A stretch of 63,999 nt of DNA, filler included, from Stramenopiles sp. TOSAG23-6 (Eukaryota), in NCBI GenBank assembly GCA_900128565.1. It is 14 parts of 14 records of this genome, joined end to end, with 100 filler letters (N's around TTAATTAATTAA, not from the genome) between each part and the next. Parts side by side here need not be neighbours in the genome. Positions count along the whole stretch, not along the records: positions 32,134 to 36,612 come from LT637156.1; 13 more parts are not named here. The stretch is one strand, 5' to 3'. The notes below the pieces were generated by a model that saw nothing but the letters and a program-made list of their open reading frames with translations, had not been told where the DNA came from and did no database searches. Shown piece after piece: positions 17,536-56,213 of the stretch. The translations under genes were made by a program, and so were the position numbers. The number at the start of each line of letters is the position of its first letter. Position 1 is the stretch's first letter.

Positions 17536-18191
17536 ATGTCATTTGAAGTTCCATTGTCAAGTGTTGCTTGCGGTTCGGCACACACTTTACTTCTGGCGCA
17601 TAATGGTTCAAGCATTTATGCTTTCGGGGAAGGACGCTATGGTCAACTTGGAAACGATANTTCTGATGATCCTAACACGGTCAAGTTAGTGAGCAAAGAC
17701 AAAACAAATGATAAAAAATTATCTTGGGCTAACTTCACTGCAAATCACGTTGCTTGTGGTTCAAATCATTCAGCCTTAGTCACGGAAGAGGGATATTTGT
17801 ACACATGGGGGCGACACAATAAGGGTCAATTGGGAAATATTGATTTATGGGGAACAAATGCTTTTGTTAATACAAAAATTGAATTGAGATCGTGCACGAC
17901 CCCGTGTATTGTGAATAGTTTTCTGAGAATGGATTCCATTATCAGATACGTCGATTGTGGTTGTGATTTTACAATGGCACTGGTACGTTTTCAACTTACA
18001 TCTAAAATTATTTTATTTTTTCAAAAGAAAAACTTACCTAACAAATTTCAAACGTAAAACAAAGATATTGTATTACAATACTTGACGAACATGGTTTTCT
18101 CTATAGCTGGGGTTTAGGAAGTTATGGTAATTTAGGGCATGGAGATACTTTAGACCGTAAAGAGCCAACGGCTGTGAAGGACATACAATGT
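17536..18191 (+). CDS. RCC1-repeat protein, 5' part (exons 17536-17982, 18084-18191)
   Basis: Repeated VACGxxH/YxWG/GQLG blades. Confidence 0.85.
17983..18083 (+). mobile_element. Introner-family intron, GT-TT
   Basis: Restores FTMAL|DEHGFLYSWG; the nearest upstream AG (18064) is out of frame. Confidence 0.8.
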
Positions 18192-18437
18192 GTACGTTTT
18201 ATTTTTTTTTGTTTTCGAAAAAAAAAAAATCGATTTTTTTTTTCGTACGAAATTTTGTACCTAACAATTTTTTTAGAATTTNNNNNNNNNNNNNNNNNNN
18301 NNNNNNNNNNNNNNNNNNNNNNNNNTTAATTAATTAANNNNNNNNNNNNNNNNNNNNNNNNNNNNNNNNNNNNNNNNNNNNTTTCGTACGAAATTTTGTA
18401 CCTAACGTTTTTTTTCAAATATTTTTCCAAAATACAT

Positions 18438-19397
18438 GCTTGGCAAGCAAGAGACGAATTAAGTGAGGGTAAAATGTATGCCAATACGCTTTCCTCTGGT
18501 TTAGATGATTACCCTAGATCATCTCATCCTGATTCTCAAGAACGTCATGTGGATCTTTATTCATGGATTGCATGTGGTTCCAGAATCATGGCTAGGGTTG
18601 CCAAAATTATTGAGTATAAAGAGAAAGAAATTTATTATTTAAAGCTTGAAAAAAAACTAATCGATAATTTAGATTTTCTTCATTGGGATGAAAAAAGTAA
18701 TTCATACGCTGATTTTGGATTACATATAAATGGTCAAGTTAGAGATTGGCCCATTGCAAGATGTGCTGATATGAAACAACGTAAAATTGTGGAACGCCCC
18801 GCCTTGAGTGATGATCCAGAATCTGTTTGTGTGCCACCTTTAAAGTATTATGGTCTTTCAAGAGAAGAGTCTGGAAAAGTGAAAAATATGTCAGTATATG
18901 GAACGAATGATGTCAATAATAATCCAATTTTGCAATTTGTACCCAGATATGGTTACGTTTCAATTTTCCCTCTCATTTTACGTGTTATCCCTCCTGACTC
19001 TCCACGTCTTCTTGTTGTAATGAAAATGCTACGTAATGAGAAACATCTATGGACACCGTGGGGTTTGCGTTCTCTGTCTAAACATGATACATTTTATGGC
19101 AAGTCCAATGCACCAGGAGATGATCCATACTGGAGAGGGCCTATTTGGTACAATATAAATTATTTAGCATTATCAGGTCTTTATTATTATGCGAATACAG
19201 ACGGGCCATTCCAAACGAAAGCAAACGAGATTTATCACGAACTTAGGGAAAATGTTATAATGAATATTTTTGGAGAATGGAAACGAACGGGGTTCTTCTG
19301 GGAGCAATATAATGATGAAACAGGTGAAGGACAAAAAGCGCATCCATTTACTGGTTGGACTGCCACAGTTGTTAACATTATGGGGGAGTTGTATTGA
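18438..19397 (+). CDS. MOGS: Mannosyl-oligosaccharide glucosidase I (GH63), last exon
   Basis: TLSSGLDDYPR, HVDL, YWRGPIW, WEQY, PFTGWT. Confidence 0.92.
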   Translation, partial: AWQARDELSEGKMYANTLSSGLDDYPRSSHPDSQERHVDLYSWIACGSRIMARVAKIIEYKEKEIYYLKLEKKLIDNLDFLHWDEKSNSYADFGLHINGQVRDWPIARCADMKQRKIVERPALSDDPESVCVPPLKYYGLSREESGKVKNMSVYGTNDVNNNPILQFVPRYGYVSIFPLILRVIPPDSPRLLVVMKMLRNEKHLWTPWGLRSLSKHDTFYGKSNAPGDDPYWRGPIWYNINYLALSGLYYYANTDGPFQTKANEIYHELRENVIMNIFGEWKRTGFFWEQYNDETGEGQKAHPFTGWTATVVNIMGELY

Positions 19398-19585
19398 AAT
19401 GTTTATAAATCATGTACTTTTCATACAAAGTCATTTTTCCTATAACTACAGTGGTGAAAAACTATGATTAAGTACACGCAACACTGAGATATCGTTTTTA
19501 TTTTACTCTTCTCATTTCTACAAAAAAAATCTTATAAATTTTTCATAATAATACTGAAATTTCATATGGTTGTTTCCCCCATTAT

Positions 19586-20998
19586 TCACGCCCACCCTTT
19601 ATCGATCATCTCTTGTTCCTGCTTTAACCTTTTCTGCGTTAACTGTTGTTCCTCCATGAAATTTTTGGCAAAACTCGTCATCTGTTCAATAAATTTCGGG
19701 TTCTCCCACAATGCAACTAGACTAAAACCTCCAGCAGTTGGTGCAGCACCGACAGGTGTAGTAGGAGCTACAGCATCAGCTAGACCAAAACCTCCAGCAG
19801 CTGGTGTACCAAAACCTCCAGCAGCTGGTGCACCAAAACTTCCAGCAGCTGGTGCACCAAAACCTCCAGCAGCTGGTGCACCAAAACCTCCAGCAGCTGG
19901 TACTGGTTCACCAAAACCTCCAGTAGCTGGTGTACCAAAACCTCCAGCACCAAAACCTCCCGTTGCTGGCGCATGGCCAACAGGTACAGCAGTAGGCACA
20001 ACATGTACAGTAGCAGGGATTAGTGATCCAGGCAATGCTGAAGCAACACGTGTACGTGATTGTGTTGCAACAACAGGTTCAATATATCTGTCAATCACGC
20101 GATTAATTGCATCAAAATCAAGCCATTTCCTTTGAGATGCTTTCCACACCAATCCTGTTTGCGCCAATAAATCAAGTAATCTCGCACCGGTTTCTCTAAA
20201 CTCCTCACCATACCCACTTACCCAATCGTCAACGATGAAATTCTTTAACCTGGCAATATTATTTTCGTCTTCCTCAAAAACCGCCTTTGAAAGTTCGGTT
20301 GGCAAGCTAATGGAATTTCTAGAATTATTCACAGTCAGAATTCTCATTATAATCTGAGCTATGGACCATTTGTCGAATGAACCATCTGATGTTCTCGTTA
20401 ATCTCTCAGGTGGACAATACTCTTCTGTTATTATAACAGGGTATTGGCCAAACAAGGTAGCAGCTCCAAAATCTGCGATATCAAGCGAACCATCATCATT
20501 GACGAATAAGTTTTCAGGTTTGATATCGTTGTGCGATATTCTTTTTTGTTCAATTTCTTTCAAACCATCTTCAACATTCGAAAGGCTCTTCACCAATCGA
20601 AGCATTTCAATTCCAAATACTTTTTTATCGGGCTCTGTCGGAAATTTTTTAAAGTACTTATTCCTCACAAACAAATACTTTTCCAAAAAGTCCTTTTTCT
20701 TATAATATTTAAGTTTAATAGATAAAGTGCTGTCGTCCTTTTGCAAAATTCGGATAACATGAGGACAATCGCGAACCTTTTCCAACATTCCACTTTCCGT
20801 TTCGAAGTCATCCCGACGATTAAAGACTTTCCAGCAACTATCCGTATCACAATAAAGGTTTGCCTGGCCACTAGCTACTTCTAATCGGTTGAATCCTGGA
20901 AGGTTGATTTGAGGAACACTGCGCAGCGCCGCCTTTGAAAAAATGCAGTGTAGCATGAAAAATATAGCCATGCTTTTAGGAAACAAAAACATCCTCAT
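19586..20998 (-). CDS. Divergent Ser/Thr protein kinase with signal-peptide-like N-terminus and C-terminal GGFG repeats
   Basis: HNDIKPEN, DFG, PPE, DKWS; the upstream ATG at 21127 is out of frame in the second copy. Confidence 0.8.
   Translation of the reverse strand: MRMFLFPKSMAIFFMLHCIFSKAALRSVPQINLPGFNRLEVASGQANLYCDTDSCWKVFNRRDDFETESGMLEKVRDCPHVIRILQKDDSTLSIKLKYYKKKDFLEKYLFVRNKYFKKFPTEPDKKVFGIEMLRLVKSLSNVEDGLKEIEQKRISHNDIKPENLFVNDDGSLDIADFGAATLFGQYPVIITEEYCPPERLTRTSDGSFDKWSIAQIIMRILTVNNSRNSISLPTELSKAVFEEDENNIARLKNFIVDDWVSGYGEEFRETGARLLDLLAQTGLVWKASQRKWLDFDAINRVIDRYIEPVVATQSRTRVASALPGSLIPATVHVVPTAVPVGHAPATGGFGAGGFGTPATGGFGEPVPAAGGFGAPAAGGFGAPAAGSFGAPAAGGFGTPAAGGFGLADAVAPTTPVGAAPTAGGFSLVALWENPKFIEQMTSFAKNFMEEQQLTQKRLKQEQEMIDKGWA
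19726..19968 (-). repeat. 24-bp coding tandem repeat (GGFGAPAA)n
   Basis: CCAAAACCTCCAGCAGCTGGTGCA units on the + strand. Confidence 0.9.
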
Positions 20999-21300
20999 CT
21001 TAATGATCTGAGATTGAAATGAAAATTTAAGCACGACTATTTTTAAAGGGTAGCGAAAATTCTGCTTCTTTGCGTCTTCGTTTGGATTCGTTTGGATTCG
21101 TTTGGATTTTGGAAAGGCGCTGTTCATTTACCATTTCCGGGTAACTTCAAATATCCAAAAACTCCAAAAAAAACAGATTGTAATCGGGGCCGTGGTCGGT
21201 ACGTTAAATACGTGACGAAAATGACACTGGCACATAAAAAAGTCTTTTGGTGCCAGAGTGCATATCTACAGATGCAATCTACAGTTATCATAATCTAGTG

Positions 21301-22796
21301 ATGGGTAATTCTCCTAGCTCTAAATCTTCCCGATCGACTGTTAGATCTCTTTCTTGCTCTAGTCCCATAGAAAAGAATGCTTCAAATTTCCCAGAACTTG
21401 TTGAGATGAAGTCACCTCGCAGGCAATCCGTTCATGCTGGTTTAGAAAATCCTCTTGGACATAATAACTGCTTTCTGAATGTGTGTATACAAGCAATGTG
21501 GCATTTAGATGCATTTCGTGATGCAATTTTACGTTCAGAGCATTCTCTGATTGATAAATCGCTTGAAGGATCTGCTTCTGCTTCGTCTGACCCTAATAAT
21601 ACCTTGTTATATAAAATCCACCAACTGTTTAGACGATATGCGTCTACAGGATCATACAGTGGACCTTTAAAGTCTAGTGATATTCGCATAACATTGGCTA
21701 GTTTATACGGGAGCCAAAACCGTTTCCAACTAGGTCAAATTGACGATGCAACAGAGGCCTTTGATTGTATTTTAAAGTGTATACATGCTAATCACATTTC
21801 CGATAAACCAGGATTACAAAATGCCTTGGCGAAAATTTCCGTAGATGGTCAACTTGATGTTAGTCGTAGTATAGATATTCCATGCGAAGAAGGTATGAGT
21901 CGCGGTTGTGTCGCTTGCTCTGTGTTTGGATATGATTCGTTTGATAAAAGTGTCTGTGGTACCTGTGGTATTACTTCTGAGCCTATCATTTGCCGAGAAT
22001 TAGTTTACCTTGTATATGCCCATGAACTTTCTGCTGTGATATATGAACAAAGATCTACAAAGGAGACACCTGAACTATCTAAATTACTCAGGCAAATAGT
22101 ATGCACGTTTTCATCATTATTTTTTTACAAAAACGTTTTTTCGTAGTAAATTTTGTATCTAACGAATTATTTGACGAAAAAAAATATTTTTTATAAGACA
22201 GTGAGAGCCCATCCACCAAAATCATGTCCATCCAAAAATGAGGATAAAAATGTATCACAATCTGAGATATCTTTAAATGATTCTAATAGCCCAGATTGTA
22301 AAACAGCAAACAAAACTAAAAATATATCATGTGAAGGTAAGGCGAATACGGATCGTCCGTTTTCAAAATTAAATTTCGAATTTATTTGTTTTTTCGTACG
22401 AAATTCCGTACCTAACGAATGTTTTTAAGAAAAAAAATATTTTTCACAATATATGTTGGTGTGTTTCTTTACCAAAAGTTTTTGTTCTTAGCCTCGTATG
22501 GTCATCAGATAGATCATCAAAAGTAGAAATAGAGTGTGCTTTAGACGTAATGTCTCAACAGCTGTAAGTTGTCCACTTTAATTTCAATTTGGTTTTCGTA
22601 CGAAATTTCATACCTAACAAGTTGTTTTTCTAAAAAACATATTTTTCACAATACTTGAAACTTCGTGAAGTTTTTCAATGCCCCCAAGTTGAATTAAACA
22701 AAGAGGCGCAAAATTCTATCTATAGTTTTTCTGGTATGATTTGTTATTATGGTAAGCATTATGTTGCATTTTTCATCAGTCGTGCTCAAAAAACAT
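21301..22796 (+). CDS. USP53/USP54-like ubiquitin C-terminal hydrolase, 5' part (exons 21301-22102, 22202-22354, 22455-22563, 22657-22796)
   Basis: GLENPLGHNNCFLN Cys box, DATEAF, LSLVW, YYGKHY His box; MGNS N-terminus. Confidence 0.85.
22103..22201 (+). mobile_element. Introner-family intron, GC-AG
   Basis: GCACGT donor; phase 1 fits AAGACAG|TG. Confidence 0.6.
22355..22454 (+). mobile_element. Introner-family intron, GT-AT
   Basis: GTCCGT...CACAATATAT; gives DRWCVSLPKVFVLSLVW. Confidence 0.75.
22564..22656 (+). mobile_element. Introner-family intron, GT-TT
   Basis: GTAAGT...CACAATACTT; phase 2 (CT|G). Confidence 0.75.
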
Positions 22797-23178
22797 GTAT
22801 TTTTTCATCATTCACTCTTAAAAAAATATTTTCTTTTTTTTTGAGTAATTAACGAATTTCGAATTTGNNNNNNNNNNNNNNNNNNNNNNNNNNNNNNNNN
22901 NNNNNNNNNNNTTAATTAATTAANNNNNNNNNNNNNNNNNNNNNNNNNNNNNNNNNNNNNNNNNNNNCTCTCTCTAAAATTATTATGATTTGAGATTTCG
23001 ATTTTTCAATTGCACACATTATATGATATGATATAGGTTTCATATTACATTTGCGTTTCACAGTATATAAAACATCACCACATGGCATCAAGGAACCTCT
23101 TTGAACCTCTTTGAACCTCTTTATAACACTAAATTTTTCGGTGTCCACATATTAGTGTGAGTAATTAATTGCACAACC

Positions 23179-29076: not shown

Positions 29077-32033
29077 ATGGGTGTTCATGTGACTCGTCGT
29101 ACATCACGGGAAAGACAAGTAGTTATGTTATCATCAAAAGGATATTTCACTTCCCCTCAATTACATGTCGAAGGTAAACATAGTATTTGTCTTCTCATCG
29201 AACACGTTGGAACATGGACACTTCGTCCAAGTGAAATTAAATTGTGTAAAGACTTGGAAAATAAACTATCTCGTAAAGTATCTGGAAATGCATTGGATAA
29301 GACACGTATATCATCTGAGGACTTAATACTTGTACCTCTACCGAACAAATTAATTGGTTGTTCTAATTTATGTGGTCTACAATCACCGACTCGATTAATT
29401 CAATGGGTAAAGGAGAAACAATCTCCAAAGAATAAAATTAGTCTACTAGATCATACTCGACTCGGTAATGATCCATTACAATGGAGTGAACAACAAAAAC
29501 AATGGTTATCAAAACATATTATCTGGACTCGATATAATGAACGTGTGACAAATAGTCATGATGAAAAAGAAAATGGGCATATTTATCTTGGTTTACTTGA
29601 TGGTACACAACAAAATTGGGAATTACCTAATAATGAATTAGAAGAATGGAGTAAAGCAGAAGAGGATGTCCAACATTCAATATCTTGTGTATTTTGTCAA
29701 AATAATGAAATGAAACAAAAACAAAATTGTATACATGAAAATAATAATGAAATGAAACAAAAACAAAATTGTATTACTTATTATGTACACGTCATACGTT
29801 GGAGTAACCCTAACCCTACTTCTCTTGATAATTGTACCGATGATGAATTATTTTATCAAAAATATGGAAAAAAAAGTCTTCAAAATCAAAAAAATAAGAA
29901 AAATAGTATTAAAAAATTACGTGGAAAAGCGCGTTTTTGTGATGACGTCATTTATAGAGGCGGTCCAACCATTCGAAAATATGCAATTAAAAAAATACAA
30001 AATGATATTCAAACACTGTCAAATGTGTTACATAACCATGATTGTACTATTAATACTCAAAATATACAAAATAATAATATTCAAAATATTCAAAATATTC
30101 AAAATATACAAAATATACAAAATAATAATATTCAAAATATACAAAATATACAAAATATACAAAATAATAATACTCAAAATGAGTTAAATGCATTACAACA
30201 ATTGGCAATAACAATTAAAAATTGTCCAAATACTATAAATATTTGTACAAATTTGAATAATGAATTATGTATACAATCGTGTTATATCATTGATGATGTA
30301 ACAACAATATTATCAAATGATGTATGTTTTATTTATTTTTTTTTTTTTCGGTAAAAAAAAAAAAATTCGAATTTTTTTTTCATAGGAAATTTTGTACCTA
30401 ACAAATTTTTTTTTAAGAAAATTTTGAAATATTTTTCCAAAATACATATTTGCTTTTTACACAAAAGTAGACTTGAAATTTATATAAATGAAAATTGTGT
30501 AAATAAAAACAAAATTATTCAGTGGATGGACGCCCATAATACAACACGAAATCCTGAACAATCGACAACACGAAATCGTACAAATATCAAAAATATCAAA
30601 AATATCAAAAATATCAAAAATATCAAACATCGAAATGAAATAACACAAAAAACACAAAAAACACAAAAAACACAAAAAACACAAAAAACACAAAAACAAA
30701 ATCTAGAATGCACTATACCATTACCTAGTAATGTGAAAAATATTTTATGTAATGAAAAATTTGACCCTATATTTCGTCAAGCATGTTTGTTTTTATCATC
30801 ACGAATTTCATTTTTTTTTTTCATACGATTTTTTCATAGTAAAAAAAAAAAAAAAAAAAAATTTACTATTTGAAATTTGAAATTTTTTTTTTTTTTCGTA
30901 GAAAATTTGTACCTAACAAATTTTTTTTTTACTATTTGAAATATGTTGTACAAAATAGTAACAGAATATAGTTATATCATCGATTGTGAAGGTCCATCTT
31001 TTGAAACACGAAATCACAATCAAATTAGTTCATGGTTAAAACAATATCGATTTAATTCAACTATAAATTCACGTATATATAATCAACATAATCGTTATAA
31101 CACAGTGTTAGCAACATTAGGTGATGTATGTTTTTATATGAATGTCTAATTTAAATTCTTTTTCATACGAAATTTCGTACCTAACAAATTTTTTTTTGAT
31201 TTTTTTTTTGAAATTTCTAATTTAAATTTTTTTTCATACGAAATTTCGTACCTAACAAATTTTTTTAGATTTTTTTTTTTTGAAATATTTCTTCACTTTA
31301 TATGCCATACTTGATCTTATCGTTGCAATTCTTTTGCCATCACGAAATCTTGCAGAATTAAGAGCTAAATTAGTAGAAAATGATTCTTTACGTTTAGTTG
31401 TTAATGCAACTAATTTATCTGATATTTGTATTAATTCACCATTTGAACATGATAAAGCCTCACTTCAACATAGAGATGGAAAACGTGTATTTTTTTTTTA
31501 ATGAATTTTTTTTTTTTTTTTTTTTTAATAAATTTTTTTTTTTTTTTTTTTTTAAATTTTTTTTTTTTTTTTNNNNNNNNNNNNNNNNNNNNNNNNNNNN
31601 NNNNNNNNNNNNNNNNNNNNNNNNNNNNNNNNNNNNNNNNNNNNNNNNNNNNNNNNNNNNNNNNNNNNNNNNNNNNNNNNNNNNNNNNNNNNNTGCTGGT
31701 TGTTGTACTGATATCAATTTGAATCAACCTAATTATGTTTGTGGTGGTATTTCGTGTTTTTATAGTCCTGAACAGTTTTGTAGAAATTCTGGGTTTCAAA
31801 TTGTTTTTGATTTCGTGTTTTGGTCATTTCAACAGACTGGACAAAAAGGTATTGAACCCTATTCCACCTTTCATAATATAGTAAACCCTAACCCTAATTC
31901 AGACAAATCAAAATATTTTGAAAATTTTAATATGTTGATACATTCAGACAAATCAAAACTTCATCAAAATAGGCAATGTGAAAATAATTGTAAAAAAATA
32001 TCCATTCAATATTTAAAAAAAATTGGAAAAATG
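29077..32033 (+). CDS. Low-complexity protein with RNase III-like domain (exons 29077-30321, 30448-~30784, ~30959-31125, 31304-31486, then gap)
   Basis: Spliced LATLGD|AILDLIVA...LRAKLVENDSL...K resembles the RNase III signature region. Confidence 0.6.
30322..30447 (+). mobile_element. Introner-family intron, GT-AT
   Basis: Phase 0; AT duplicated. Confidence 0.75.
30785..30958 (+). mobile_element. Introner-family intron, boundaries ambiguous (GT-AG, or GC 30781 to TA 30960)
   Basis: TTTGTACCTAAC present; both boundary pairs keep frame. Confidence 0.5.
31126..31303 (+). mobile_element. Introner-family intron, GT-AT, with duplicated branch module
   Basis: Splits the LGD|AIL motif; CATACGAAATTTCGTACCTAAC occurs twice. 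Confidence 0.8.
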
Positions 32034-32215
32034 NNNNNNNNNNNNNNNNNNNNNNNNNNNNNNNNNNNNNNNNNNNNTTAATTAATTAANNNNNNNNNNN
32101 NNNNNNNNNNNNNNNNNNNNNNNNNNNNNNNNNAATAAATTTTGAAATAAATGATAAAAACATGAAAAAAAAAATTAAATTGAAAAAAATAATTTGATGT
32201 AAATGATACACATAC

Positions 32216-33687
32216 ATAGTAATTGGTAAAATCAACATTAGTGTCCAAAACTGCTCTTGGGTAGGTATAGCCCACCAATACGCTTCGATCCATAAAAACG
32301 TAGTGAGAAAAACACAACTTGACCCTTCATAACTTCTTGTATACAAATATTGTACAAAATATTTCAAAAATTGGAAATTTGTTAGGTACAAAATTTTTTG
32401 AAAAAAATAAAAATTTGAATTGAAAAAAACATTACATTTGAAATTAACGTACAATTTTGATGATGTACAAGATCGTGTCGCGTACTTATGTTTTCCTGTA
32501 TAGATTCCTACAGGTTCTGCGAGCCCATCTCCGACACCTGCATGTATAGTGAAGAATATTATGTGTAGTGAAAAATACGTTATACACGAAATACACGAAA
32601 TTTGTTACCAAAAAAAAAATTGAAATTCATTAAGAAAACGTACAACCAAAACAAAAATCATGACAAGTTTTTGCTGATCGATTCCAAGACTGGAAAATAG
32701 CCAGTTGAAAAATACAATCATGCACAAACCTGGTAAAATATTTCCACCAATGATCCATAATAAGACATTGGGTCGATCTTCCGGACGATCTAAAGAATTA
32801 AACATCCACAAGTACTGTAAAAAAATATTTCAAACATTTGAAATGTTTTGTTAGGTACAAAATTTCGTACCAAAAAAAAATATTTCAAAAATTTAACATT
32901 GAACAATATATTTGAATTGAAGGATGAAAATGTACATAAAAGGTGAGAAATTCTCTCGAAGTGGTTTTATCAAAACAAGGAAGCCTAGAAGAGTAAAAAA
33001 ATCTCCCCAGACTAGATGTAACTGAGGATATCCTGTAGCAATATTGGTCTTTACCAACAATGGCACTGCATAAGCAGCAAAATGTTGAAATTTTCGAGTA
33101 TAATTGACCTTGAACCACGACGCTTTGCTTGTTAGAATGTATCCATGTTCATCTACGTCACAATAACATCTGCACAAAGCACCACCACAGAGTGATACAA
33201 AACATATTATGAATAATTTAATGCCGTTTGTCTTCCAGAATTGAATATTATGCAAAAGGTGAGGTTCATAAATTGTAGTCACGCCAAGTAAAACTAAGAA
33301 AAATACAATCATAAACACAAGAAATGTAAGATCAAATGTTGTCTTCCAATCTTCACTATACTGTCGTCCTTCCTGTGCCATTTCTCCAGACTCGATTATA
33401 CGAGGACCACTACTCACTTCTATTATACGGGTTGCATGCTCAGGTATATCCCCATGGTCATCTGTGGGCACGGTACTACTAGCTTTACGTCTATCGTCCA
33501 TTTCTCCAAGTTTTGGCAAAGGCCAGAAGCCGCAAAAGTTTCGCCAACACAAAATTAAAAAAAACAAACCCAAAGGTACAGCTACAAAAGCTATCTGCTC
33601 TTCCTGTGAAAGCTGATGAGGCCATTTCGCGTGACTCTTAAAATCATCGTGGACGCTTTTCATAGCATTCTTCAAAATTCCTCCCAT
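32216..33687 (-). CDS. CTP-dependent polyprenol/phytol/diacylglycerol kinase-like membrane protein, 5' part (exons 33687-32936, 32809-32644, 32541-32453, 32344-32216)
   Basis: TRKFQHF, GVGDGLAEPVG, RSYEGS motifs; multiple TMs. Confidence 0.75.
32345..32452 (-). mobile_element. Introner-family intron, GT-TT
   Basis: Phase 2 (TT|G); TT duplicated. Confidence 0.75.
32542..32643 (-). mobile_element. Introner-family intron, GT-AT (degenerate branch module)
   Basis: FVLV|AGVGDGLAE; the downstream CAG is out of phase. Confidence 0.7.
32810..32935 (-). mobile_element. Introner-family intron, GT-TT
   Basis: Ends ...TTACAGTACTT; the CAG 5 nt upstream is out of phase. Confidence 0.75.
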
Positions 33688-34136
33688 GGTAATAATAGAA
33701 GTAATTAGTATTGAATAATACTTTGATGACAATGCAAGCAGGTATTTACAGAATTTGCTGTACGATATCTAGGAGAAAGAAATTTATTGTTAATGCTTAT
33801 AAAAAAATCCTTTATCTTTGCTCTCTTCATATATCCTCGACAACAAAAAATCTCAAACCACCAACAGTGTCCACGATTTTTTTTGACATTTTTTTTTCGG
33901 ATTTAAATATTTGCTATTTTTTTACCTTCTAAAGTTTCAGTTTCGGTATCTTTTGCGGTACCGTACCCACGAAGATTTTTTTTCTAACGGTACAAATATA
34001 GTGAAGTAATTGTTCTGTGTAAAGGAAACAATTGTTTAATAGCAAGGGCTACAAAAATTTCCGTGTGAATTGACGAGTACATTTTAACCGTGTGAATTGA
34101 CGAGGGCATTTATATTCTACAGCAGCAAACTTCAGC

Positions 34137-34846
34137 ATGACAAAACTTATTACATTCCTTATCACGTTATTGGTACTTGGAAAATGCGAAGGAAAATACG
34201 ATAAAGGTGAGTATTTGGATTGTACTGCCGATATCGAATGTAAAGTCGAACTATACTGTAATAAATTTCCTGCCGTAGGGGGTGAAAGCTATTGTGCCAA
34301 ATCCTGTACGGAAGGTGGTAGCTGTTCTTCTACGGCATATTGTGATGTAGGTAAATGCGCAGCTAAAAAACAAACTGGGGGTATTTGCTCTAAATCAGAA
34401 GAATGTTCCACAGGTTTGAAATGTATCTTCTCCGAGTGTGGTTACGGTAAATCATTTGGGGAATACTGCTATTCAACAAATGACTGTGTCGCAAATTTGG
34501 TATGTAACAACTACAAGTGTGATTCCTCCTACTCCAATGGTGGTGACTACGGTCCTTACTACGGTGATGATTCTGGATCTACGTTCGAAAAAAACAAAGT
34601 ATTGTTTGTGGTGTTGATTGTGGTGGGGATTGTTTTTGTATTAGGTGGTACAGCTGTTGTCGTTTATTACCAGAGAAAACATCAATTAGCACAGCATAAT
34701 AATCCAAATTTTCGAAATGGCCATCCACCACCAGTACCAAACGGAATACCAGTTGTCGCCAGTGTAGTGAGTAACCCTCTAGGAGACAACAAAACACGAA
34801 TGCCAGTGGTCAAGACTGTTGCACATGCACATACAATCAACAATAA
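34137..34846 (+). CDS. Type I membrane protein with Cys-rich ectodomain repeats (3' end in gap)
   Basis: Signal peptide, G..C....EC..GL.C....C repeats, one TM. Confidence 0.7.
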
Positions 34847-36806: not shown

Positions 36807-38023
36807 ATTAGAATCAGATATTTTACGTTTTTCACGTGAAGTGTCGTTTAGCCAGCGTAAAGCTTCATTGCGTGTATATTCTAACGAAGAATCGTCTAGA
36901 TTATAAACTGTGAAAAAATATTATATTTAATTTTTTGTTAGATACAAATTGTTTTTTGTTTTTGAAAAAAAAAATGAAAAAATTTTAAATTTTGAACGCA
37001 TACACTACTCATGATATTACTACTACTACTACTACTACTTGTTGCTGAATTTCTCGATTTTGGAGTTTGAGATGTTTCGTGGGATATATCTACTTTTTTT
37101 TTATGTATTTTATTATGTTTTGTAACTTGCTTGACCCACGAGTGTTCTAATAATCTGGTTGCTGTGAGACGAAATGTCGGCTCTTTTTGAAAGCATTCCT
37201 GTAAAAAATCTTGACACAAATCTGAAATTCCGTTTGGCATTGGAGGGTATTCATCTTGAACAATTCGGTATAATGCACGCATTGGTGCTAAATCAAAATA
37301 AGGGGGCTTTCCTGTAAGTAGCTCAATTAAAGTACAACCGAGACTCCAGATGTCGCATGAAGTCGTCAAACCTGACATCTGAACAATTTCTGGTGCCATC
37401 CAAAAAGGAGTGCCAACAACGTCAAGGTCATTTGATATCATATCCTTCGAACTCTTTGGATTATTATGCGAGGTATTTACTATACCACTAGTATCTTGGC
37501 CGATACTTTTTCTCAAAGAACCCTTTGATTTAGCGTCTCCGAGACTTGAAGCAACACCAAAATCGGCTAGTTTGACCACACCACTTTTTGTCGTCAAAAT
37601 GTTGGCTCCTTTTATATCTCTGTGGATCACACCTTGACTGTGTAAATATTCTAAACCTCTCATGACTTGTGTAATATACACCACAGCAAGTGTTTCCGTA
37701 AATGTACCAAATTGTTTGACAATGTCTGCTAGGGAACCGTTTTCGGCAAATTCAAGTATAATGTTTAAATGAGTTGGAGTCCGTACTGTACCGCGATACT
37801 CGACAATATTGGCGTGACTTAAATTTTTAAGTAAGTCGATTTCGCTCTCAGCACAAGCAAGCGAATCTGCTGATAAACCAGTGAGTGGAATTCGCTTAAT
37901 TGCACAAGCTTCTTTCGTTGTTGGATTTATACCCTTATAAACCATGCCAAATCCACCACGTCCTATACGTTCACCAACCTCCCAAGCACCAACGCGTGCA
38001 TCCATTGAAATTGCGTCGTCCAT
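36807..38023 (-). CDS. Cdc15/Cdc7/MAP3K-epsilon-like STE kinase, 5' part (exons 38023-37004, 36902-36807)
   Basis: GRGGFG, EFAENGSL, HRDIKGANILTTK, GTPFWMAPE, ALYRIVQD. Confidence 0.88.
36903..37003 (-). mobile_element. Introner-family intron, GT-AT
   Basis: Ends CACAGTTTAT; the CAG is out of phase and the AT end keeps frame. Confidence 0.65.
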
Positions 38024-41287: not shown

Positions 41288-41756
41288 TTGCCTTTATTGC
41301 CATACCAAGAGAACCATCCGCAAATGTCACCGACAAAAGCTGCTTTGGGTTTTCTTTAATTTGTGCCCTCGCTTGAACTAATCTATTTCGTCCGGCAATC
41401 CCAATATGTCGACGGAATGTCATTTCATAGGGAACATTTCCTTTAGTTAACTTTGACAATGACTTCATGATAACCTCGGGAGGGAAGTTTTCCACACTTT
41501 TATCGTTAATTCTGAGAAGGTCGTCGCATTTTAAAACTCCCTGTCTTTGAAGTTGACCCATTGGTTTTATGCGTGAAACCCAGGTACCACCACCTTCAGA
41601 TGATGGACAAGCCGCAATAGCCGCACCTAATGACTCAGCAGGATTACAAATTACAGTGAAACACTTTTGAGTTTCGTTTTCAGACTTTTCGACCGGTACT
41701 TTTGTTCCAAGTCCAATCTTTCCGTTGGAAGTTGCTGGTGCTCTGGCAAAACTCAT
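41288..41756 (-). CDS. PDZ-domain protein, 5' fragment
   Basis: SLGAAI...VSRIKP.G...GVLKCDDLLRIND; second PDZ starts at GSLGM. Confidence 0.75.
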
Positions 41757-42100
41757 TTTAACGCGAAGCTAATCTACAAATAAAAAGTAGTATTATATTA
41801 ATGAAAACGTTTACTAAACATTTATGTGCTCTGGTATACAAACATTGTACATGTTTCGATAGTTTTATGAAGTTTTGCTGGTTGTCTATATGAACTTTTT
41901 TTTGGGTATGCGGTCCACTTGGGCACTACTGCCGCTACTGCTCTTCAAAACAGTTACTAGCCCTAACCCTAATTAATCGTAATCGAAGAGTCAGTCAAGT
42001 GCTACGTATTCCTTACTATTCCCATTTACGGTACGCATACTCAGTAAAACTATACTTATTACGAGCACTACATTGCCATATTGTTAGATTGAGAGCCACA

Positions 42101-44309
42101 ATGCCAAAACGTGGTACTAAAAGAAAGAAAGAATTAGACCCTGCAGTTGAGTTGCACCGCAGCCTTCGGAGAGAGCTATGTAATGCTTCAAAGTTTAGTA
42201 ATGCCGAAGCAGCTATTGCAGTTTTTGAGCGTGCCAGTGCTGAAAATATCAAGCTTGATACTTCCATGTACCAAATGATATTGAATGTAATAACCAAATC
42301 ATACAGCGATGCCATTGAATCTAGTACCGAACCTGTTAAGACATCTGAAGAACTTGAAAATTTATTCGAAAAGAGGCGAACCCAAGCCTTAGCTGTGTGG
42401 AGGCACATGGAAAAACGGTCTATGACTGGACCCCCCGAGGCTTGTTTTTACGCCCTCATTAAGTTAATGGCATTGAGTGGCACTGTTATTGGATTTGACG
42501 AATCCCTTAAATATCTGGTTGAAATGGAGTCAGGTATTTGTTCAGATCCTACTTCTATCCCAGAAAAGCAACATAGATTTGCCCATCCAGCTCGACTTCG
42601 TACTCTCACTCCTATGATTGAAGCTTTAAGCATGCTTGTGCAAAACAGAGACTCTGCAAAAGACGAAGCCTTATCTCTATACACTCGTTTCAGTACACTT
42701 GATCTTGATCCGTCTGAAAGTGTGTTCTATTCGATGTTGAAGATTTGCTGTGAACTTTCGGATAAAGAAGATAAATCTCCGATTTTTGACGGTGTAAAAC
42801 AAGGAAGCATTGGCTGTCTTGGTCACGGTGTACTTTTAGATATGAAAGAAATAGTCGCTACTCCGAGTGCTAAGACGTGTAATATTATTTTTCGTTGGTT
42901 TAAGACGGTAGCTGCAAAATATGGAAGTTTTCAGGCTATGGCGCGTGCTGATGCTTCCTGTGCTAGTGCTGGAAGTACTGCAATGGCAAATGCGACGTCA
43001 ACAAAATCTGATACTTTAGATGATTCTTTTGTCAAAGGTGACTCACACAAATGGATAGTTTGTGAAACGAGTGTAGATACCAAAGGAATATGTGCAACTA
43101 CAAATGCTCAACTTGAATTAGTACAATTATCCTCTGCTGAATTAATCGCCTTACGTAATCAAGTTGATGGTCTTGTATGTGTACGTTTTTTTCCTAAAAC
43201 CNTTTTTTTTTTTTTTTTNTACCAAATTTTGTACCTAACATTTTTTTTACAAAAAAAAAAAAAATTTTCCAAAATACATACTTCTGAAGAACGTACTAAA
43301 CAATATAAAAGCTTTCTTGAATTTTGTAAGAAAAATGGCCCATATGACATTTGTGTTGATGGTGCAAATGTTGGCTATCATCATCAATCACAAACTAAAA
43401 TCCGTAATGGTGCTGGGTATGCATATGACCAAGTTGAACTTGTTTGTCGACATTATGAATCCTTAGGGAAAAAAGTTCTTGTATGTTTTCACTAAAACCC
43501 TAACCCTTAACAAATAATTTCAATTTTGTTTTTTTGGTTCTTGTTTGTTTTCAGTAAAACCCTAACCCTTAACAAATAATTTCAATTTTTTTTTTTTGGT
43601 AGAAAATTTCGTACCTAACGAATTTCAAACTTGTACACATATTTTACTACAATACTTCTCGTATTACACAAAAAATATTTTAAATCTCGGGGTGGACGAC
43701 CACCTATGGTTCCTTCAACTCTGAAAACAAGTTGGAATGTATGTTTTATTTTTTTTTTAAACAAAAAAATCGATTTTTTTTTTTGGTTTTCGTACGAAAT
43801 TTTGTACCTAACGATTTTTTTTTTTAATATTTTTCTAAAATACATGAACGTAAAATACTGTATACTCTTCAACCGCATAATAATGATGACTGGTATTGGT
43901 TAGCTGCAGCTGTTCGCGGATCGGTTAATGCGACTGTAATTAGTAATGATCAGATGAGAGATCATGTACGTTTTCATGATGAATTTCATTTTTTTTTTTT
44001 TTTTTGGTTTTCATACGAAATTCTGTACCTAACGATTTTTTTTCTACAATATGTTTCACAATATATCACTTTGGGATGTTACGCCCTCGACATTTCTTAA
44101 AGTGGAAAGCTGCGCATTGTACTAACTATGATTTTACACTTAATGAATATGGTGCTAAGGCTCCAATACTAAAGGAACCCGGTACCTTTTCTATCCATAT
44201 GCAACGAAATATTACCAATGATACAAGTGGGAAAAACAAAATTGAAGTTTGGCACATTCCTGTCGCAGAAACTCCAGGGAAGTGGTATTGTATCTATCGG
44301 AAAATTTGA
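42101..44309 (+). CDS. PRORP: Protein-only RNase P (PPR-like + NYN); exons 42101-43180, 43280-43480, 43658-43738, 43846-43965, 44067-44309
   Basis: RLRTLTP, VDGANVG, NDDWYWL, SNDQMRDH|HF, WHIP motifs; basic NLS-like N-terminus. Confidence 0.9.
43181..43279 (+). mobile_element. Introner-family intron, GT-AT (3n, stop-free; alternative donor at 43175)
   Basis: Consensus motifs; phase 0. Confidence 0.75.
43481..43657 (+). mobile_element. Introner-family intron, GT-TT, with internal duplication and telomeric motif
   Basis: CTT|GT...CTT|; KKVL|LVLH. Confidence 0.8.
43739..43845 (+). mobile_element. Introner-family intron, GT-AT
   Basis: SWN|ERKILYT leads into NDDWYW. Confidence 0.85.
43966..44066 (+). 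mobile_element. Introner-family intron, GT-AT
   Basis: Restores MRDH|HFGML. Confidence 0.85.
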
Positions 44310-44665
44310 CTTTTATTTATACCTCTATATCTTATATAAATCTGAATTAACTATTACTATCAACTACAAGTAGTATGTGATCTGAGATCAATCTGAATGT
44401 TTTCATTGTACTCAAAAAACTTTTCTTCTCTTTATAATTGAATAATAACCCTAACCCTATAAGCTATCGGCGATATTTTGCAGGTCAAACACGTGTCAGA
44501 TCGAGATCGATCAACTTTTTACTCTCGCGAGTCGCGAGAAGGTCATGTGTTCCTTATAGTAGCTCAGCTTATTATAGTATAAAAAGCGAGCAACTGTATT
44601 TCAAAAACTTGTGGTTTACCTTTTTTCATTGCCTGTATAGATCTCAAAATCTCAATATCCTCAAT

Positions 44666-45529
44666 ATGTCTGTTGGAGTTTACATTCGCCGTCCAGTATA
44701 TTTTCAATCCTTCATCAAACAGTTACCAATCTTTGGAAACGCCACATTTAGTACTTCAACTACACGAGATATCACTTTATACCAGTATAAAATATGTCCT
44801 TTCTGTAATAAAGTAAAGTCTCTCCTAGACTATGCTAGTGTACCATACCAAACAGTTGAAGTAGATCCTCTGAGTAAAGGTGAATTAAAGTTCTCAAAGG
44901 ACTATAAAAAGGTTCCGATTGCCCGTATTGGGAACGAAATTGTTACCGAATCTGGTACAATTATGAAAAAAATCATTGAAAGTGAAGCACTCCAAGAGAA
45001 AATGTCTACGACTTCTTCCGATTTTTTGAGTCCCAGTGCACACAAGTGGGCCGAATGGGCTGATAAAGAACTTGCTGTCCTGCTCTATCCTAATTTAGTG
45101 CGTAGTTTAAGTGAATCTCGTGATGCACTTAAGTATGTATATTCTGTACCAAACTTCACTTTAACCCAGAAGATTTTGAGTCATAATATAGGAAGTTTTG
45201 CAATGTGGCTTGCTAGTGGGAAGTTGAAAAAAAAGTATGGCATTGTTGATGAGCGACGCTCGTTATATGATGCCTTAGATATCTGGGAAAAGTCAGCCCT
45301 CCAAAATAAACAGTTTGCAGGTGGCGACTTACCAAATTTAGGCGATGTTGCAGTATTTGGAGTCATTCGATCATTAGAAGGTTTATCCCTTCATACAGAG
45401 TTATTACAGAGCTCAAAGCGAACAGAATTGTCTAATTGGTATACTGAAATGAAGAGTAAAGTAGGGAAATCTATGGAAAATGTTATTGAGAATCCAACAG
45501 TGACAACCGAAATATCTGAAAATAAATGA
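44666..45529 (+). CDS. PTGES2: Microsomal prostaglandin E synthase 2-like (glutaredoxin/GST fold)
   Basis: LYQYKICPFCNKVK, YKKVPI, PNLGDVAVFG. Confidence 0.9.
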   Translation: MSVGVYIRRPVYFQSFIKQLPIFGNATFSTSTTRDITLYQYKICPFCNKVKSLLDYASVPYQTVEVDPLSKGELKFSKDYKKVPIARIGNEIVTESGTIMKKIIESEALQEKMSTTSSDFLSPSAHKWAEWADKELAVLLYPNLVRSLSESRDALKYVYSVPNFTLTQKILSHNIGSFAMWLASGKLKKKYGIVDERRSLYDALDIWEKSALQNKQFAGGDLPNLGDVAVFGVIRSLEGLSLHTELLQSSKRTELSNWYTEMKSKVGKSMENVIENPTVTTEISENK

Positions 45530-45861
45530 TGAAAAAAAATTTGTAGTTTCTCTATATATTTTCGCAACAAGTCGATAACATTATTATTTCAATGGTGTTT
45601 TCAAAAACATTTTATTTCATGTAATTTTAATTTTTCAATATGTGCAAGTTATATACACGCTGCGTATTATATTGTACGCCTTAGATACAGATTAGTTGAA
45701 TTAATCAGTAAATTTATAATTTTTTTTTCATATGAGAACATCAGATCCAGAACTGCCGCTCNNNNNNNNNNNNNNNNNNNNNNNNNNNNNNNNNNNNNNN
45801 NNNNNTTAATTAATTAANNNNNNNNNNNNNNNNNNNNNNNNNNNNNNNNNNNNNNNNNNNN

Positions 45862-46330
45862 TTGCCTTTATTGCCATACCAAGAGAACCATCCGCAAATG
45901 TCACCGACAAAAGCTGCTTTGGGTTTTCTTTAATTTGTGCCCTCGCTTGAACTAATCTATTTCGTCCGGCAATCCCAATATGTCGACGGAATGTCATTTC
46001 ATAGGGAACATTTCCTTTAGTTAACTTTGACAATGACTTCATGATAACCTCGGGAGGGAAGTTTTCCACACTTTTATCGTTAATTCTGAGAAGGTCGTCG
46101 CATTTTAAAACTCCCTGTCTTTGAAGTTGACCCATTGGTTTTATGCGTGAAACCCAGGTACCACCACCTTCAGATGATGGACAAGCCGCAATAGCCGCAC
46201 CTAATGACTCAGCAGGATTACAAATTACAGTGAAACACTTTTGAGTTTCGTTTTCAGACTTTTCGACCGGTACTTTTGTTCCAAGTCCAATCTTTCCGTT
46301 GGAAGTTGCTGGTGCTCTGGCAAAACTCAT
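45862..46330 (-). CDS. PDZ-domain protein fragment (redundant contig copy 2)
   Basis: Same as 41288-41756. Confidence 0.75.
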
Positions 46331-46674
46331 TTTAACGCGAAGCTAATCTACAAATAAAAAGTAGTATTATATTAATGAAAACGTTTACTAAACATTTATG
46401 TGCTCTGGTATACAAACATTGTACATGTTTCGATAGTTTTATGAAGTTTTGCTGGTTGTCTATATGAACTTTTTTTTGGGTATGCGGTCCACTTGGGCAC
46501 TACTGCCGCTACTGCTCTTCAAAACAGTTACTAGCCCTAACCCTAATTAATCGTAATCGAAGAGTCAGTCAAGTGCTACGTATTCCTTACTATTCCCATT
46601 TACGGTACGCATACTCAGTAAAACTATACTTATTACGAGCACTACATTGCCATATTGTTAGATTGAGAGCCACA

Positions 46675-48883
46675 ATGCCAAAACGTGGTACTAAAAGAAA
46701 GAAAGAATTAGACCCTGCAGTTGAGTTGCACCGCAGCCTTCGGAGAGAGCTATGTAATGCTTCAAAGTTTAGTAATGCCGAAGCAGCTATTGCAGTTTTT
46801 GAGCGTGCCAGTGCTGAAAATATCAAGCTTGATACTTCCATGTACCAAATGATATTGAATGTAATAACCAAATCATACAGCGATGCCATTGAATCTAGTA
46901 CCGAACCTGTTAAGACATCTGAAGAACTTGAAAATTTATTCGAAAAGAGGCGAACCCAAGCCTTAGCTGTGTGGAGGCACATGGAAAAACGGTCTATGAC
47001 TGGACCCCCCGAGGCTTGTTTTTACGCCCTCATTAAGTTAATGGCATTGAGTGGCACTGTTATTGGATTTGACGAATCCCTTAAATATCTGGTTGAAATG
47101 GAGTCAGGTATTTGTTCAGATCCTACTTCTATCCCAGAAAAGCAACATAGATTTGCCCATCCAGCTCGACTTCGTACTCTCACTCCTATGATTGAAGCTT
47201 TAAGCATGCTTGTGCAAAACAGAGACTCTGCAAAAGACGAAGCCTTATCTCTATACACTCGTTTCAGTACACTTGATCTTGATCCGTCTGAAAGTGTGTT
47301 CTATTCGATGTTGAAGATTTGCTGTGAACTTTCGGATAAAGAAGATAAATCTCCGATTTTTGACGGTGTAAAACAAGGAAGCATTGGCTGTCTTGGTCAC
47401 GGTGTACTTTTAGATATGAAAGAAATAGTCGCTACTCCGAGTGCTAAGACGTGTAATATTATTTTTCGTTGGTTTAAGACGGTAGCTGCAAAATATGGAA
47501 GTTTTCAGGCTATGGCGCGTGCTGATGCTTCCTGTGCTAGTGCTGGAAGTACTGCAATGGCAAATGCGACGTCAACAAAATCTGATACTTTAGATGATTC
47601 TTTTGTCAAAGGTGACTCACACAAATGGATAGTTTGTGAAACGAGTGTAGATACCAAAGGAATATGTGCAACTACAAATGCTCAACTTGAATTAGTACAA
47701 TTATCCTCTGCTGAATTAATCGCCTTACGTAATCAAGTTGATGGTCTTGTATGTGTACGTTTTTTTCCTAAAACCTTTTTTTTTTTTTTTTTNTACCAAA
47801 TTTTGTACCTAACATTTTTTTTACAAAAAAAAAAAAAATTTTCCAAAATACATACTTCTGAAGAACGTACTAAACAATATAAAAGCTTTCTTGAATTTTG
47901 TAAGAAAAATGGCCCATATGACATTTGTGTTGATGGTGCAAATGTTGGCTATCATCATCAATCACAAACTAAAATCCGTAATGGTGCTGGGTATGCATAT
48001 GACCAAGTTGAACTTGTTTGTCGACATTATGAATCCTTAGGGAAAAAAGTTCTTGTATGTTTTCACTAAAACCCTAACCCTTAACAAATAATTTCAATTT
48101 TGTTTTTTTGGTTCTTGTTTGTTTTCAGTAAAACCCTAACCCTTAACAAATAATTTCAATTTTTTTTTTTTGGTAGAAAATTTCGTACCTAACGAATTTC
48201 AAACTTGTACACATATTTTACTACAATACTTCTCGTATTACACAAAAAATATTTTAAATCTCGGGGTGGACGACCACCTATGGTTCCTTCAACTCTGAAA
48301 ACAAGTTGGAATGTATGTTTTATTTTTTTTTTAAACAAAAAAATCGATTTTTTTTTTTGGTTTTCGTACGAAATTTTGTACCTAACGATTTTTTTTTTTA
48401 ATATTTTTCTAAAATACATGAACGTAAAATACTGTATACTCTTCAACCGCATAATAATGATGACTGGTATTGGTTAGCTGCAGCTGTTCGCGGATCGGTT
48501 AATGCGACTGTAATTAGTAATGATCAGATGAGAGATCATGTACGTTTTCATGATGAATTTCATTTTTTTTTTTTTTTTTGGTTTTCATACGAAATTCTGT
48601 ACCTAACGATTTTTTTTCTACAATATGTTTCACAATATATCACTTTGGGATGTTACGCCCTCGACATTTCTTAAAGTGGAAAGCTGCGCATTGTACTAAC
48701 TATGATTTTACACTTAATGAATATGGTGCTAAGGCTCCAATACTAAAGGAACCCGGTACCTTTTCTATCCATATGCAACGAAATATTACCAATGATACAA
48801 GTGGGAAAAACAAAATTGAAGTTTGGCACATTCCTGTCGCAGAAACTCCAGGGAAGTGGTATTGTATCTATCGGAAAATTTGA
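46675..48883 (+). CDS. PRORP: Protein-only RNase P (copy 2)
   Basis: Same as copy 1, offset 4574. Confidence 0.9.
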
Positions 48884-49239
48884 CTTTTATTTATACCTCT
48901 ATATCTTATATAAATCTGAATTAACTATTACTATCAACTACAAGTAGTATGTGATCTGAGATCAATCTGAATGTTTTCATTGTACTCAAAAAACTTTTCT
49001 TCTCTTTATAATTGAATAATAACCCTAACCCTATAAGCTATCGGCGATATTTTGCAGGTCAAACACGTGTCAGATCGAGATCGATCAACTTTTTACTCTC
49101 GCGAGTCGCGAGAAGGTCATGTGTTCCTTATAGTAGCTCAGCTTATTATAGTATAAAAAGCGAGCAACTGTATTTCAAAAACTTGTGGTTTACCTTTTTT
49201 CATTGCCTGTATAGATCTCAAAATCTCAATATCCTCAAT

Positions 49240-50103
49240 ATGTCTGTTGGAGTTTACATTCGCCGTCCAGTATATTTTCAATCCTTCATCAAACAGTTAC
49301 CAATCTTTGGAAACGCCACATTTAGTACTTCAACTACACGAGATATCACTTTATACCAGTATAAAATATGTCCTTTCTGTAATAAAGTAAAGTCTCTCCT
49401 AGACTATGCTAGTGTACCATACCAAACAGTTGAAGTAGATCCTCTGAGTAAAGGTGAATTAAAGTTCTCAAAGGACTATAAAAAGGTTCCGATTGCCCGT
49501 ATTGGGAACGAAATTGTTACCGAATCTGGTACAATTATGAAAAAAATCATTGAAAGTGAAGCACTCCAAGAGAAAATGTCTACGACTTCTTCCGATTTTT
49601 TGAGTCCCAGTGCACACAAGTGGGCCGAATGGGCTGATAAAGAACTTGCTGTCCTGCTCTATCCTAATTTAGTGCGTAGTTTAAGTGAATCTCGTGATGC
49701 ACTTAAGTATGTATATTCTGTACCAAACTTCACTTTAACCCAGAAGATTTTGAGTCATAATATAGGAAGTTTTGCAATGTGGCTTGCTAGTGGGAAGTTG
49801 AAAAAAAAGTATGGCATTGTTGATGAGCGACGCTCGTTATATGATGCCTTAGATATCTGGGAAAAGTCAGCCCTCCAAAATAAACAGTTTGCAGGTGGCG
49901 ACTTACCAAATTTAGGCGATGTTGCAGTATTTGGAGTCATTCGATCATTAGAAGGTTTATCCCTTCATACAGAGTTATTACAGAGCTCAAAGCGAACAGA
50001 ATTGTCTAATTGGTATACTGAAATGAAGAGTAAAGTAGGGAAATCTATGGAAAATGTTATTGAGAATCCAACAGTGACAACCGAAATATCTGAAAATAAA
50101 TGA
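49240..50103 (+). CDS. PTGES2: mPGES-2-like (copy 2)
   Basis: Same as copy 1. Confidence 0.9.
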   Translation: MSVGVYIRRPVYFQSFIKQLPIFGNATFSTSTTRDITLYQYKICPFCNKVKSLLDYASVPYQTVEVDPLSKGELKFSKDYKKVPIARIGNEIVTESGTIMKKIIESEALQEKMSTTSSDFLSPSAHKWAEWADKELAVLLYPNLVRSLSESRDALKYVYSVPNFTLTQKILSHNIGSFAMWLASGKLKKKYGIVDERRSLYDALDIWEKSALQNKQFAGGDLPNLGDVAVFGVIRSLEGLSLHTELLQSSKRTELSNWYTEMKSKVGKSMENVIENPTVTTEISENK

Positions 50104-50435
50104 TGAAAAAAAATTTGTAGTTTCTCTATATATTTTCGCAACAAGTCGATAACATTATTATTTCAATGGTGTTTTCAAAAACATTTTATTTCATGTAATT
50201 TTAATTTTTCAATATGTGCAAGTTATATACACGCTGCGTATTATATTGTACGCCTTAGATACAGATTAGTTGAATTAATCAGTAAATTTATAATTTTTTT
50301 TTCATATGAGAACATCAGATCCAGAACTGCCGCTCNNNNNNNNNNNNNNNNNNNNNNNNNNNNNNNNNNNNNNNNNNNNTTAATTAATTAANNNNNNNNN
50401 NNNNNNNNNNNNNNNNNNNNNNNNNNNNNNNNNNN

Positions 50436-56025: not shown

Positions 56026-56213
56026 AATGTTTATAAATCATGTACTTTTCATACAAAGTCATTTTTCCTATAACTACANTGGTNAAAAACTATGATTAAG
56101 TACACGCAACACTGAGATATCGTTTTTATTTTACTCTTCTCATTTCTACAAAAAAAATCTTATAAATTTTTCATAATAATACTGAAATTTCATATGGTTG
56201 TTTCCCCCATTAT

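Follow-up and report, generated by a model that had tools for sequence, protein, structure and literature searches.

The non-canonical U2-type introns of Fritillaria borealis and F. pellucida are the closest known case to the introns described here. AT is their commonest 3′ end (34% and 44%, respectively), a YAY triplet marks the 3′ end and often precedes the donor too, few canonical introns are retained, and the core small nuclear RNA (snRNA) motifs are conserved (PMC13326754); an origin from miniature inverted-repeat transposable elements with target duplication has been reported for them (PMC11282704). We analyzed a window of 63,999 nucleotides from the protist Stramenopiles sp. TOSAG23-6 (GCA_900128565.1), a stretch of ~4.5-kb contigs of this AT-rich eukaryote strung together (assembly G000, 21.1 Mb, 6236 contigs), with emphasis on three introns, A, B, and C, of a membrane protein gene. 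The introns of this organism resemble those of Fritillaria in each of these respects, although their transposon origin is only probable. Whereas Fritillaria has diverse intron 5′ ends, most of them AG, and a U1 with a strictly unchanged 5′ end (PMC13326754), here GT is kept (96% G), one stereotyped family is dominant, and U1 is altered to fit.

Three other systems invite comparison. Micromonas and other algal introners are likewise short, repeated introns, in which the element provides the donor and the target duplication the acceptor; in them the duplication has to yield AG (PMC11282704), whereas here the apparent duplication is 2 bases, mostly AT, so that the spliceosome would have had to accept a non-AG end. 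Amoebophrya, also a marine protist, has mostly non-canonical introns with direct repeats at their borders, which standard gene finders miss; they carry inverted repeats of 8 to 20 nt, have no clear terminal signature, and come from a genome in which U1 was not found (PMC7789003), in contrast to the strong consensus, branch motif, and matching U1 here. Entamoeba and Mastigamoeba, like this organism, have a U1 whose 5′ end has changed to match an atypical donor. Their change apparently affects pairing with the donor alone (10.1101/2022.06.08.495308), whereas the one here extends to the base that pairs with exon position −1, a T, which is also the letter at the intron end.

Our literature search, which reached few subscription papers and no supplements, found no description of such introns in marine stramenopiles, and term searches of single-cell genome papers on marine protists gave no mention of splice sites (PMC5778133; 10.64898/2026.04.17.719054). 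New here are RNA support for TT ends and for unused CAGs, and leads in U1 and Prp8.

Results

Removal of introns A, B, and C

The host gene (32134..33687, minus strand) encodes a membrane protein. Some sources label its relatives dolichol kinase, and its named homologs come mostly from oomycetes and brown algae, which, together with the MAST label on a public model of the gene, suggests an uncultured marine stramenopile. Exons at 33687-32936, 32809-32644, 32541-32453, and 32344-32216 are separated by intron A (32810..32935, GT..TT, 126 nt), intron B (32542..32643, GT..AT, 102 nt), and intron C (32345..32452, GT..TT, 108 nt), all on the minus strand; the last exon lies beyond the contig end. 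Homology stops at a probable fourth intron start (AT/GTATGT, the slash marking the exon end; 32134..32215, minus strand), where the contig end cuts the intron.

The 11 RNA runs with matching sequence are all marine metatranscriptomes. Four of them (X1 to X4; X1 is a polyA and X4 a non-polyA library) were aligned to 32134-34846, and all four covered the host gene. A 557-nt contig of X1 (depth 5.7; short side, 53 letters) skips 126 nt, from 32807 to 32934 with 3 letters ambiguous, and a 178-nt contig of X1 (depth 2.6) skips 102 nt, from 32540 to 32643 with 2 letters ambiguous. The 12 loose letters overhanging the latter contig match a single place in the window (32330-32341) and imply a skip of 108 nt, corresponding to intron C. 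None of the registers permitted at the three joints ends in AG, and only one per intron begins with GT; the GT-starting readings are GT-TT (A), GT-AT (B), and GT-TT (C). Template switching by reverse transcriptase is an unlikely source of these joints, which share 2 to 5 letters and restore a conserved protein.

With A, B, and C removed, the alignment of the protein with 12 independent homologs has no gaps at the junctions. Junction A reads F-M-W, and its Met is present in 12 of the 12; removal of B gives V-A-G-V-G-D-G, matching homologs; and the length of C agrees with theirs. The closest homolog, P0023, has PFMWMFNSLDRPEDRP, VLVAGVGDG, and KYTRSYEGS at the three junctions. A public model of the same gene with a MAST label, P0006, deviates from all homologs at all three junctions and appears to be a model with AG ends forced; P0001 reads through into intron A.

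An initial annotation of the window had pointed to CAGs adjacent to these junctions, out of phase and apparently skipped, and had proposed checking the junctions at 32810 and 32542 in RNA. The X1 contigs used neither CAG. The one at 32815..32817 (minus strand), which follows a T run and lies 5 nt upstream of the 3′ end of A, is absent from the RNA, and its use would give a 121-nt intron and a stop. The other, at 32538..32540 (minus strand), ends 4 nt into the exon after B and is the first AG past the B branch motif; it is out of frame, and its use would mean a 106-nt intron and a stop. The first AG for C comes 9 nt inside the exon and is passed over. A branch-type motif stands at 32850..32857 (minus strand) in A, where it reads TACCTAAC and presumably serves as the branch point, at 32388-32381 in C, and in degenerate form near 32586-32579 in B. 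We concluded that A, B, and C were removed at TT, AT, and TT, bypassing nearby AGs. Since contigs lose rare forms, minor CAG use may also occur.

No transcript-derived protein from the same species appeared among the 120 listed of 174 exon 1 matches or among 15 exon 2 matches, and a metagenome scan for the gene returned 22 relatives, of which none was from the same species and none had the branch motif. Three orthologs on genomic-looking contigs (L077, L078, and L094) have no introns at the positions of A, B, and C. The L094 ortholog carries an ordinary GT-AG intron elsewhere (661-814) with the donor GTACGT; donors with C at +4 may thus be older than the AT-ending family, and some of the U1 change perhaps with them. 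In X4, most of the 267 aligned records covered just the element core, at 32846-32882 (summed depth, 5585 to 7810 versus <6 on exons); they may be stable excised introns, pre-mRNA, or DNA.

A family of AT-ending introns

We scanned 0.96 Mb of DNA, partly overlapping and partly selected, and called 234 introns from 394 branch-motif sites. The last two intron bases were left unscored; the scan was anchored on the branch motif, so that motif frequency is not independent. Among 128 unselected calls with clear flanking frames by codon use, 120 joins were in frame. Their termini were GT-AT (89), GT-TT (8), GT-GT (6), AT-AT (4), GT-AG (3), GT-AC (3), GA-AT (2), GC-AT (2), and GT-CT, AT-TT, and GC-AG (1 each). 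AG thus ended 4 of 120, and the family does not show the 3′ YAG of U2-type introns. The first donor base was G in 96%, and base −3 was C in 81%. In randomly fetched DNA, TT ended 3 of 68 confident calls and 7 of 117 calls overall. Two automatic calls (L108 1595-1513 and L183 9663-9585) remain within the 120-intron counts and were excluded from a set of 138 introns used below; without them GT-TT introns number 7 and the non-AT repeats given next become 14/21.

In 89/120 introns (65 expected), the final two bases are the same as those at the end of the upstream exon; among introns with an end other than AT, this holds for 15/23 (1.5 expected). None of 20,000 shuffles reached either count. An exon ending in TT precedes 19/23 introns chosen for a TT end versus 3/97 AT-ended introns. 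Base −3 showed no clear coupling to the exon (47 versus 41 expected; p 0.06). In the larger set, 103/138 introns have the 2-base repeat. Mismatched introns nearly always end in AT, and no called end departs from AT by more than one letter although exons ending in TC, GG, and TG occur, which suggests that ends are tuned toward AT and that the terminal letters matter. Drift of the exon as the cause of mismatched repeats was ruled out by counts of synonymous changes.

In unrelated genes, particular 5′ variants go with particular 3′ variants (50/7 versus 23/41; Fisher p 3.5e-9). No two of the 138 introns are identical after run collapsing, and most of 42 Ras-family matches are unbroken by introns. 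Genome-wide, the branch motif with tail and TT matched 117 times and the branch motif with a CAG 5 nt before the end 19 times, versus 0 for each pattern reversed; these counts include duplicated contigs and are inflated by them. Redundancy is visible in the window itself, where 41288-54909 is one contig three times, near-identical, and 18382-22867 and 55010-59482 are a near-identical pair. Five in-frame family introns start with AT or GA and end in AT (L055:892-802, L067:8961-9046, L035:1077-967, L012:1090-987, and L151:1517-1426); the 5′ end appears to be relaxed too.

We concluded that GT-TT introns are copies of one ~100-nt, mostly AT-ending family. The initial annotation had taken them for a mechanistic subclass, a view we abandon, as a TT end mostly marks a family member at a TT target site. 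The repeat of the exon end, the linked subtypes, and, for one gene, the absence from orthologs together suggest an element resembling a transposon (GTAY..TAY) that duplicates 2 bases of its target.

All five introns for which a TT end had been claimed exist and keep the frame (17983-18083, 22564-22656, 32452-32345, 32935-32810, and 43481-43657). The repeat is exact at 32345 and at 43657, where the exons end in TT. At 17983..18083 (plus strand, GT..TT), in an RCC1-repeat gene, the exon ends CTG (Leu; CTT is synonymous), and an AAG 19 nt upstream of the intron end is unused; at 22564..22656 (plus strand, GT..TT) the junction codon is CTG (Leu; TTG is synonymous). These two therefore differ from a perfect repeat by a synonymous change, and A, whose upstream exon ends in AT, is a misfit. 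The 43481..43657 intron (plus strand, GT..TT) is 177 nt long with an internal duplication. Tandem duplications of a branch or donor-side segment also occur in the family introns 31126-31303 and L069:534-364. In a protein kinase gene, the intron at 36903..37003 (minus strand, GT..AT) has, as claimed, a CAG 5 nt before its junction (36910-36908), which is out of frame and gives an in-frame stop. Frame and motif make up the support for the junctions at 36903, 18083, 22656, and 43657.

An EF-type gene of the window considered as EF-2 resembles EF-G instead. Codon bias pointed to no highly expressed intron-bearing gene. A cysteine-rich membrane protein gene at 34130-34846 has a divergent copy in X4 (10 differences and a 3-base insertion).

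Placement of the 3′ splice site

An AG stands between branch motif and end in 47 introns of confident frame; the motif-defined end keeps the frame in 44/47 and the first AG in 14/47. Together with the X1 joints, this bears out the proposal that the 3′ site is not found by scanning to the first AG past the branch point. A YAG is passed over in 30/138 introns; 19 of these sites lie <20 nt from the branch A, where they may be barred by distance alone, and 11 lie further away. Homology supports a second CAG-skipping intron, in L108, where the flanking exons align with positions 1-63 and 64-106 of the profile. Four Rab proteins are restored by removal of six GT-AG introns that lack the family motifs, and two of those genes also carry a family intron; AG acceptors work in the same genes, so the preference is set by the intron itself. 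One ordinary Rab GT-AG intron (L155:1915-1764) contains a fragment resembling the branch region of the element.

The intron end lies 14 to 16 nt past an AAATAT box in 100/105 introns and 9 to 12 nt past the last T run in 128/135, and 31 to 53 nt from the branch A. The cut thus tracks the tail of the intron, not the branch point, and the idea that position relative to the tail motif sets the site holds. Ends were called from the tail, which makes the fixed spacing partly circular, with frame, homology, and RNA as independent checks, and the spacing may also be partly inherited from the element.

Splicing machinery

The recognition motifs of U2, U4, U5, and U6 are standard. The donor GT pairs with U1 and with the U6 ACAGAGA box, and the branch motif TACCTAAC is complementary to U2 GUAGUA, with one extra C relative to standard U2; a modified U2 pairing fully with the motif was considered and rejected, the U2 found being standard. 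The only U1 found, in two identical copies, scores 54 bits (cut-off, 69.5; E 9e-13). Its start, AAACGUACAUGG, differs from the Rfam consensus, AUACUUACCUGG, by three changes that fit family donors, and the complement of this start, CATGTACGTTT, is the family donor consensus, exon bases included. On family donors it is predicted to form a mean of 9.5 pairs versus 7.0 for consensus U1 and is better in 137/138. The fit of donors to U1 and U6 and the conserved branch motif speak for the donor being bound by snRNAs. In L004:9-645 (G000:C1146; copy on C6122), U5, U2, U1, and U4 stand head to tail on one strand with spacings of 2, 23, and 5 bases, and U6 lies elsewhere; such tight packing suggests a single transcription unit or internal promoters. 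A fifth snRNA gene following U4 was considered; Rfam gave no match.

The Prp8 alpha-finger, which contacts the 3′ site, is identical to the human one except for two residues, with the equivalents of yeast Gln1594, Gly1597, Leu1598, and Arg1604 kept, and was set aside as a cause. Substitutions do occur in the Prp8 RNase H domain: E1795D, K1801R, and KGM1866-1868 to PFL (human numbering). Among 150 relatives, those covering the sites have E1795D in 0/108, K1801R in 1/108, and PFL in 0/27. E1795D and K1801R presumably lie in the RNase H beta-hairpin. Mutations in the Prp8 hairpin suppress A−2 defects (10.1101/212811). We regard a possible role of these changes in splicing as a lead, suggested by comparison of protein sequences.

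No U2AF2 scored above the cut-off. L176:664-2628 is a U2AF2-like gene that has two domains of RRM1 type but lacks one of RRM2 type; we rejected its product as a reader of the tail, as the layout is unspecific and recurs in P0121 and P0122. Duplication of U2AF has been demonstrated in Fritillaria (PMC13326754).

Discussion

The explanation that we consider probable is that a short transposon-like intron family has spread through the genes of this protist, is removed by the major spliceosome, and has its 3′ site placed by its own tail. The element (GTAY...TAY) would supply the donor, branch motif, and conserved tail, and the final two bases of the intron would mostly derive from the insertion site, duplicated over 2 bases (usually AT and sometimes TT, GT, CT, AG, or AC). 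Exact removal at A, B, and C was observed; that the spliceosome performs it is our inference. The first step would be ordinary and U2-type, with U1 altered to pair with CAT/GTACGTTT. For the second, the tail (a T run, CAMAATAY, and two bases) would place the site with no search for AG, in an active site that tolerates AT or ends one letter off. Y−3 may occupy its usual Prp8 pocket and A−2, where present, may pair with the branch A, with the +1/−1 contact relaxed. The initial annotation is supported in that AG is not scanned for and that spacing from the tail matters, and unsupported in its end-pairing alternative; it missed that GT-TT is no separate subclass and that the terminal letters still count.

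Several observations weigh against this explanation. The RNA joints come from contigs of a single run, one contig per junction, with no joint in X2 to X4 (1/4 runs). The exon-end repeat is lacking in 35/138 introns, which are not enriched for synonymous changes (7 versus 5.6) and which include two of the three introns shown by RNA, A (TT after an exon ending in AT) and B (AT after an exon ending in TT). Terminal inverted repeats are just 3 to 4 bases, GTA(T)..(A)TAC, in sequence logos. Four of six ordinary Rab donors pair clearly better with consensus U1 than with the U1 found, so the assembly may lack a second U1. The Prp8 PFL change lies ~15 bases from ambiguous assembly bases, U2AF1 was absent among 15 zinc-finger matches in an incomplete genome, and no protein that reads the tail was identified.

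Some of these points would be expected if the introns were gained without any transposon, their motifs selected as extended splicing signals and the repeat produced by microhomology repair or later tuning. The quarter of introns with no repeat and no synonymous bias, the 0 identical pairs, and the short inverted ends fit this account; the linkage of 5′ and 3′ variants, the TT, GT, CT, and AG ends that follow the exon end, and the old Rab introns, evidently spliced with no such motifs, do not, and we consider it improbable. A further rival, end-pairing as offered by the initial annotation, would have a GUA-UAC fold fix the cut, as proposed for euglenid nonconventional introns. The GTA..TAC ends are complementary and the tail is partly paired at −26 to −19 and −14 to −6 (mean pairing about 0.5), but G+1 pairs with base −3 at a probability of >0.5 in just 27/138 folds (median, 0.075), short of the stable end pairing expected of a euglenid-type intron, whereas donors fit U1 and U6 and the branch motif is conserved. 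End-pairing thus has little support, and we think it distinctly unlikely.

Removal by the minor (U12) spliceosome, as for the non-canonical introns of Physarum, is more doubtful still. U12-type introns accept GT-AT and AT-AT ends (10.1101/2020.10.12.336362), and 4/120 introns here are AT-AT; yet the donor is GTAYGT rather than RTATCYTT, the branch motif lies 31 to 53 rather than 9 to 12 nt from the end, and U1 matches the donors. U6atac gave no match, weak evidence in an incomplete genome, and U11 and U12 were not searched for genome-wide. Least credible of all is a two-base error of register, in which the true introns would run xx..AC, mostly AT-AC, and GT-TT and GT-AT would be misreadings. 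C at base −3 in 81% suits such a shift, and introns with a perfect repeat (C and most AT ones) give the same mRNA in both registers. The RNA joints exclude the shifted register at A and B, with C ambiguous; homologs have M, not L, at A and V, not D, at B; L197 would gain a stop; and U1 and U6 fit GT as +1.

Within the favored explanation of a transposon-like family placed by its tail, a stronger version holds that the major spliceosome has been re-tuned around one invader: U1 rewritten to match the element together with its AT target, the Prp8 RNase H hairpin that clamps the 3′ site changed, a factor that reads the tail sequence and sets the cut at a fixed distance from it, docking of G+1 with U−1, and UU accepted, with old GT-AG introns still spliced. 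We put this forward tentatively, as possible but less likely than its negation. In the yeast P complex, the AG rule consists of two non-Watson-Crick pairs, G−1 with G+1 and A−2 with the branch A (10.1101/212811). GT-AT introns lose the G−1/G+1 pair and GT-TT introns lose both, yet removal is exact, and in intron A it is favored over a textbook U-run-CAG five bases off. The system separates the location of the site from its terminal letters and names U1 and Prp8 as candidate compensations. For this organism, gene finders that force GT-AG corrupt the genes, as in P0006; and if its spliceosome is indeed re-tuned, it would amount to a naturally occurring suppressor of the AG rule that could be moved to yeast.
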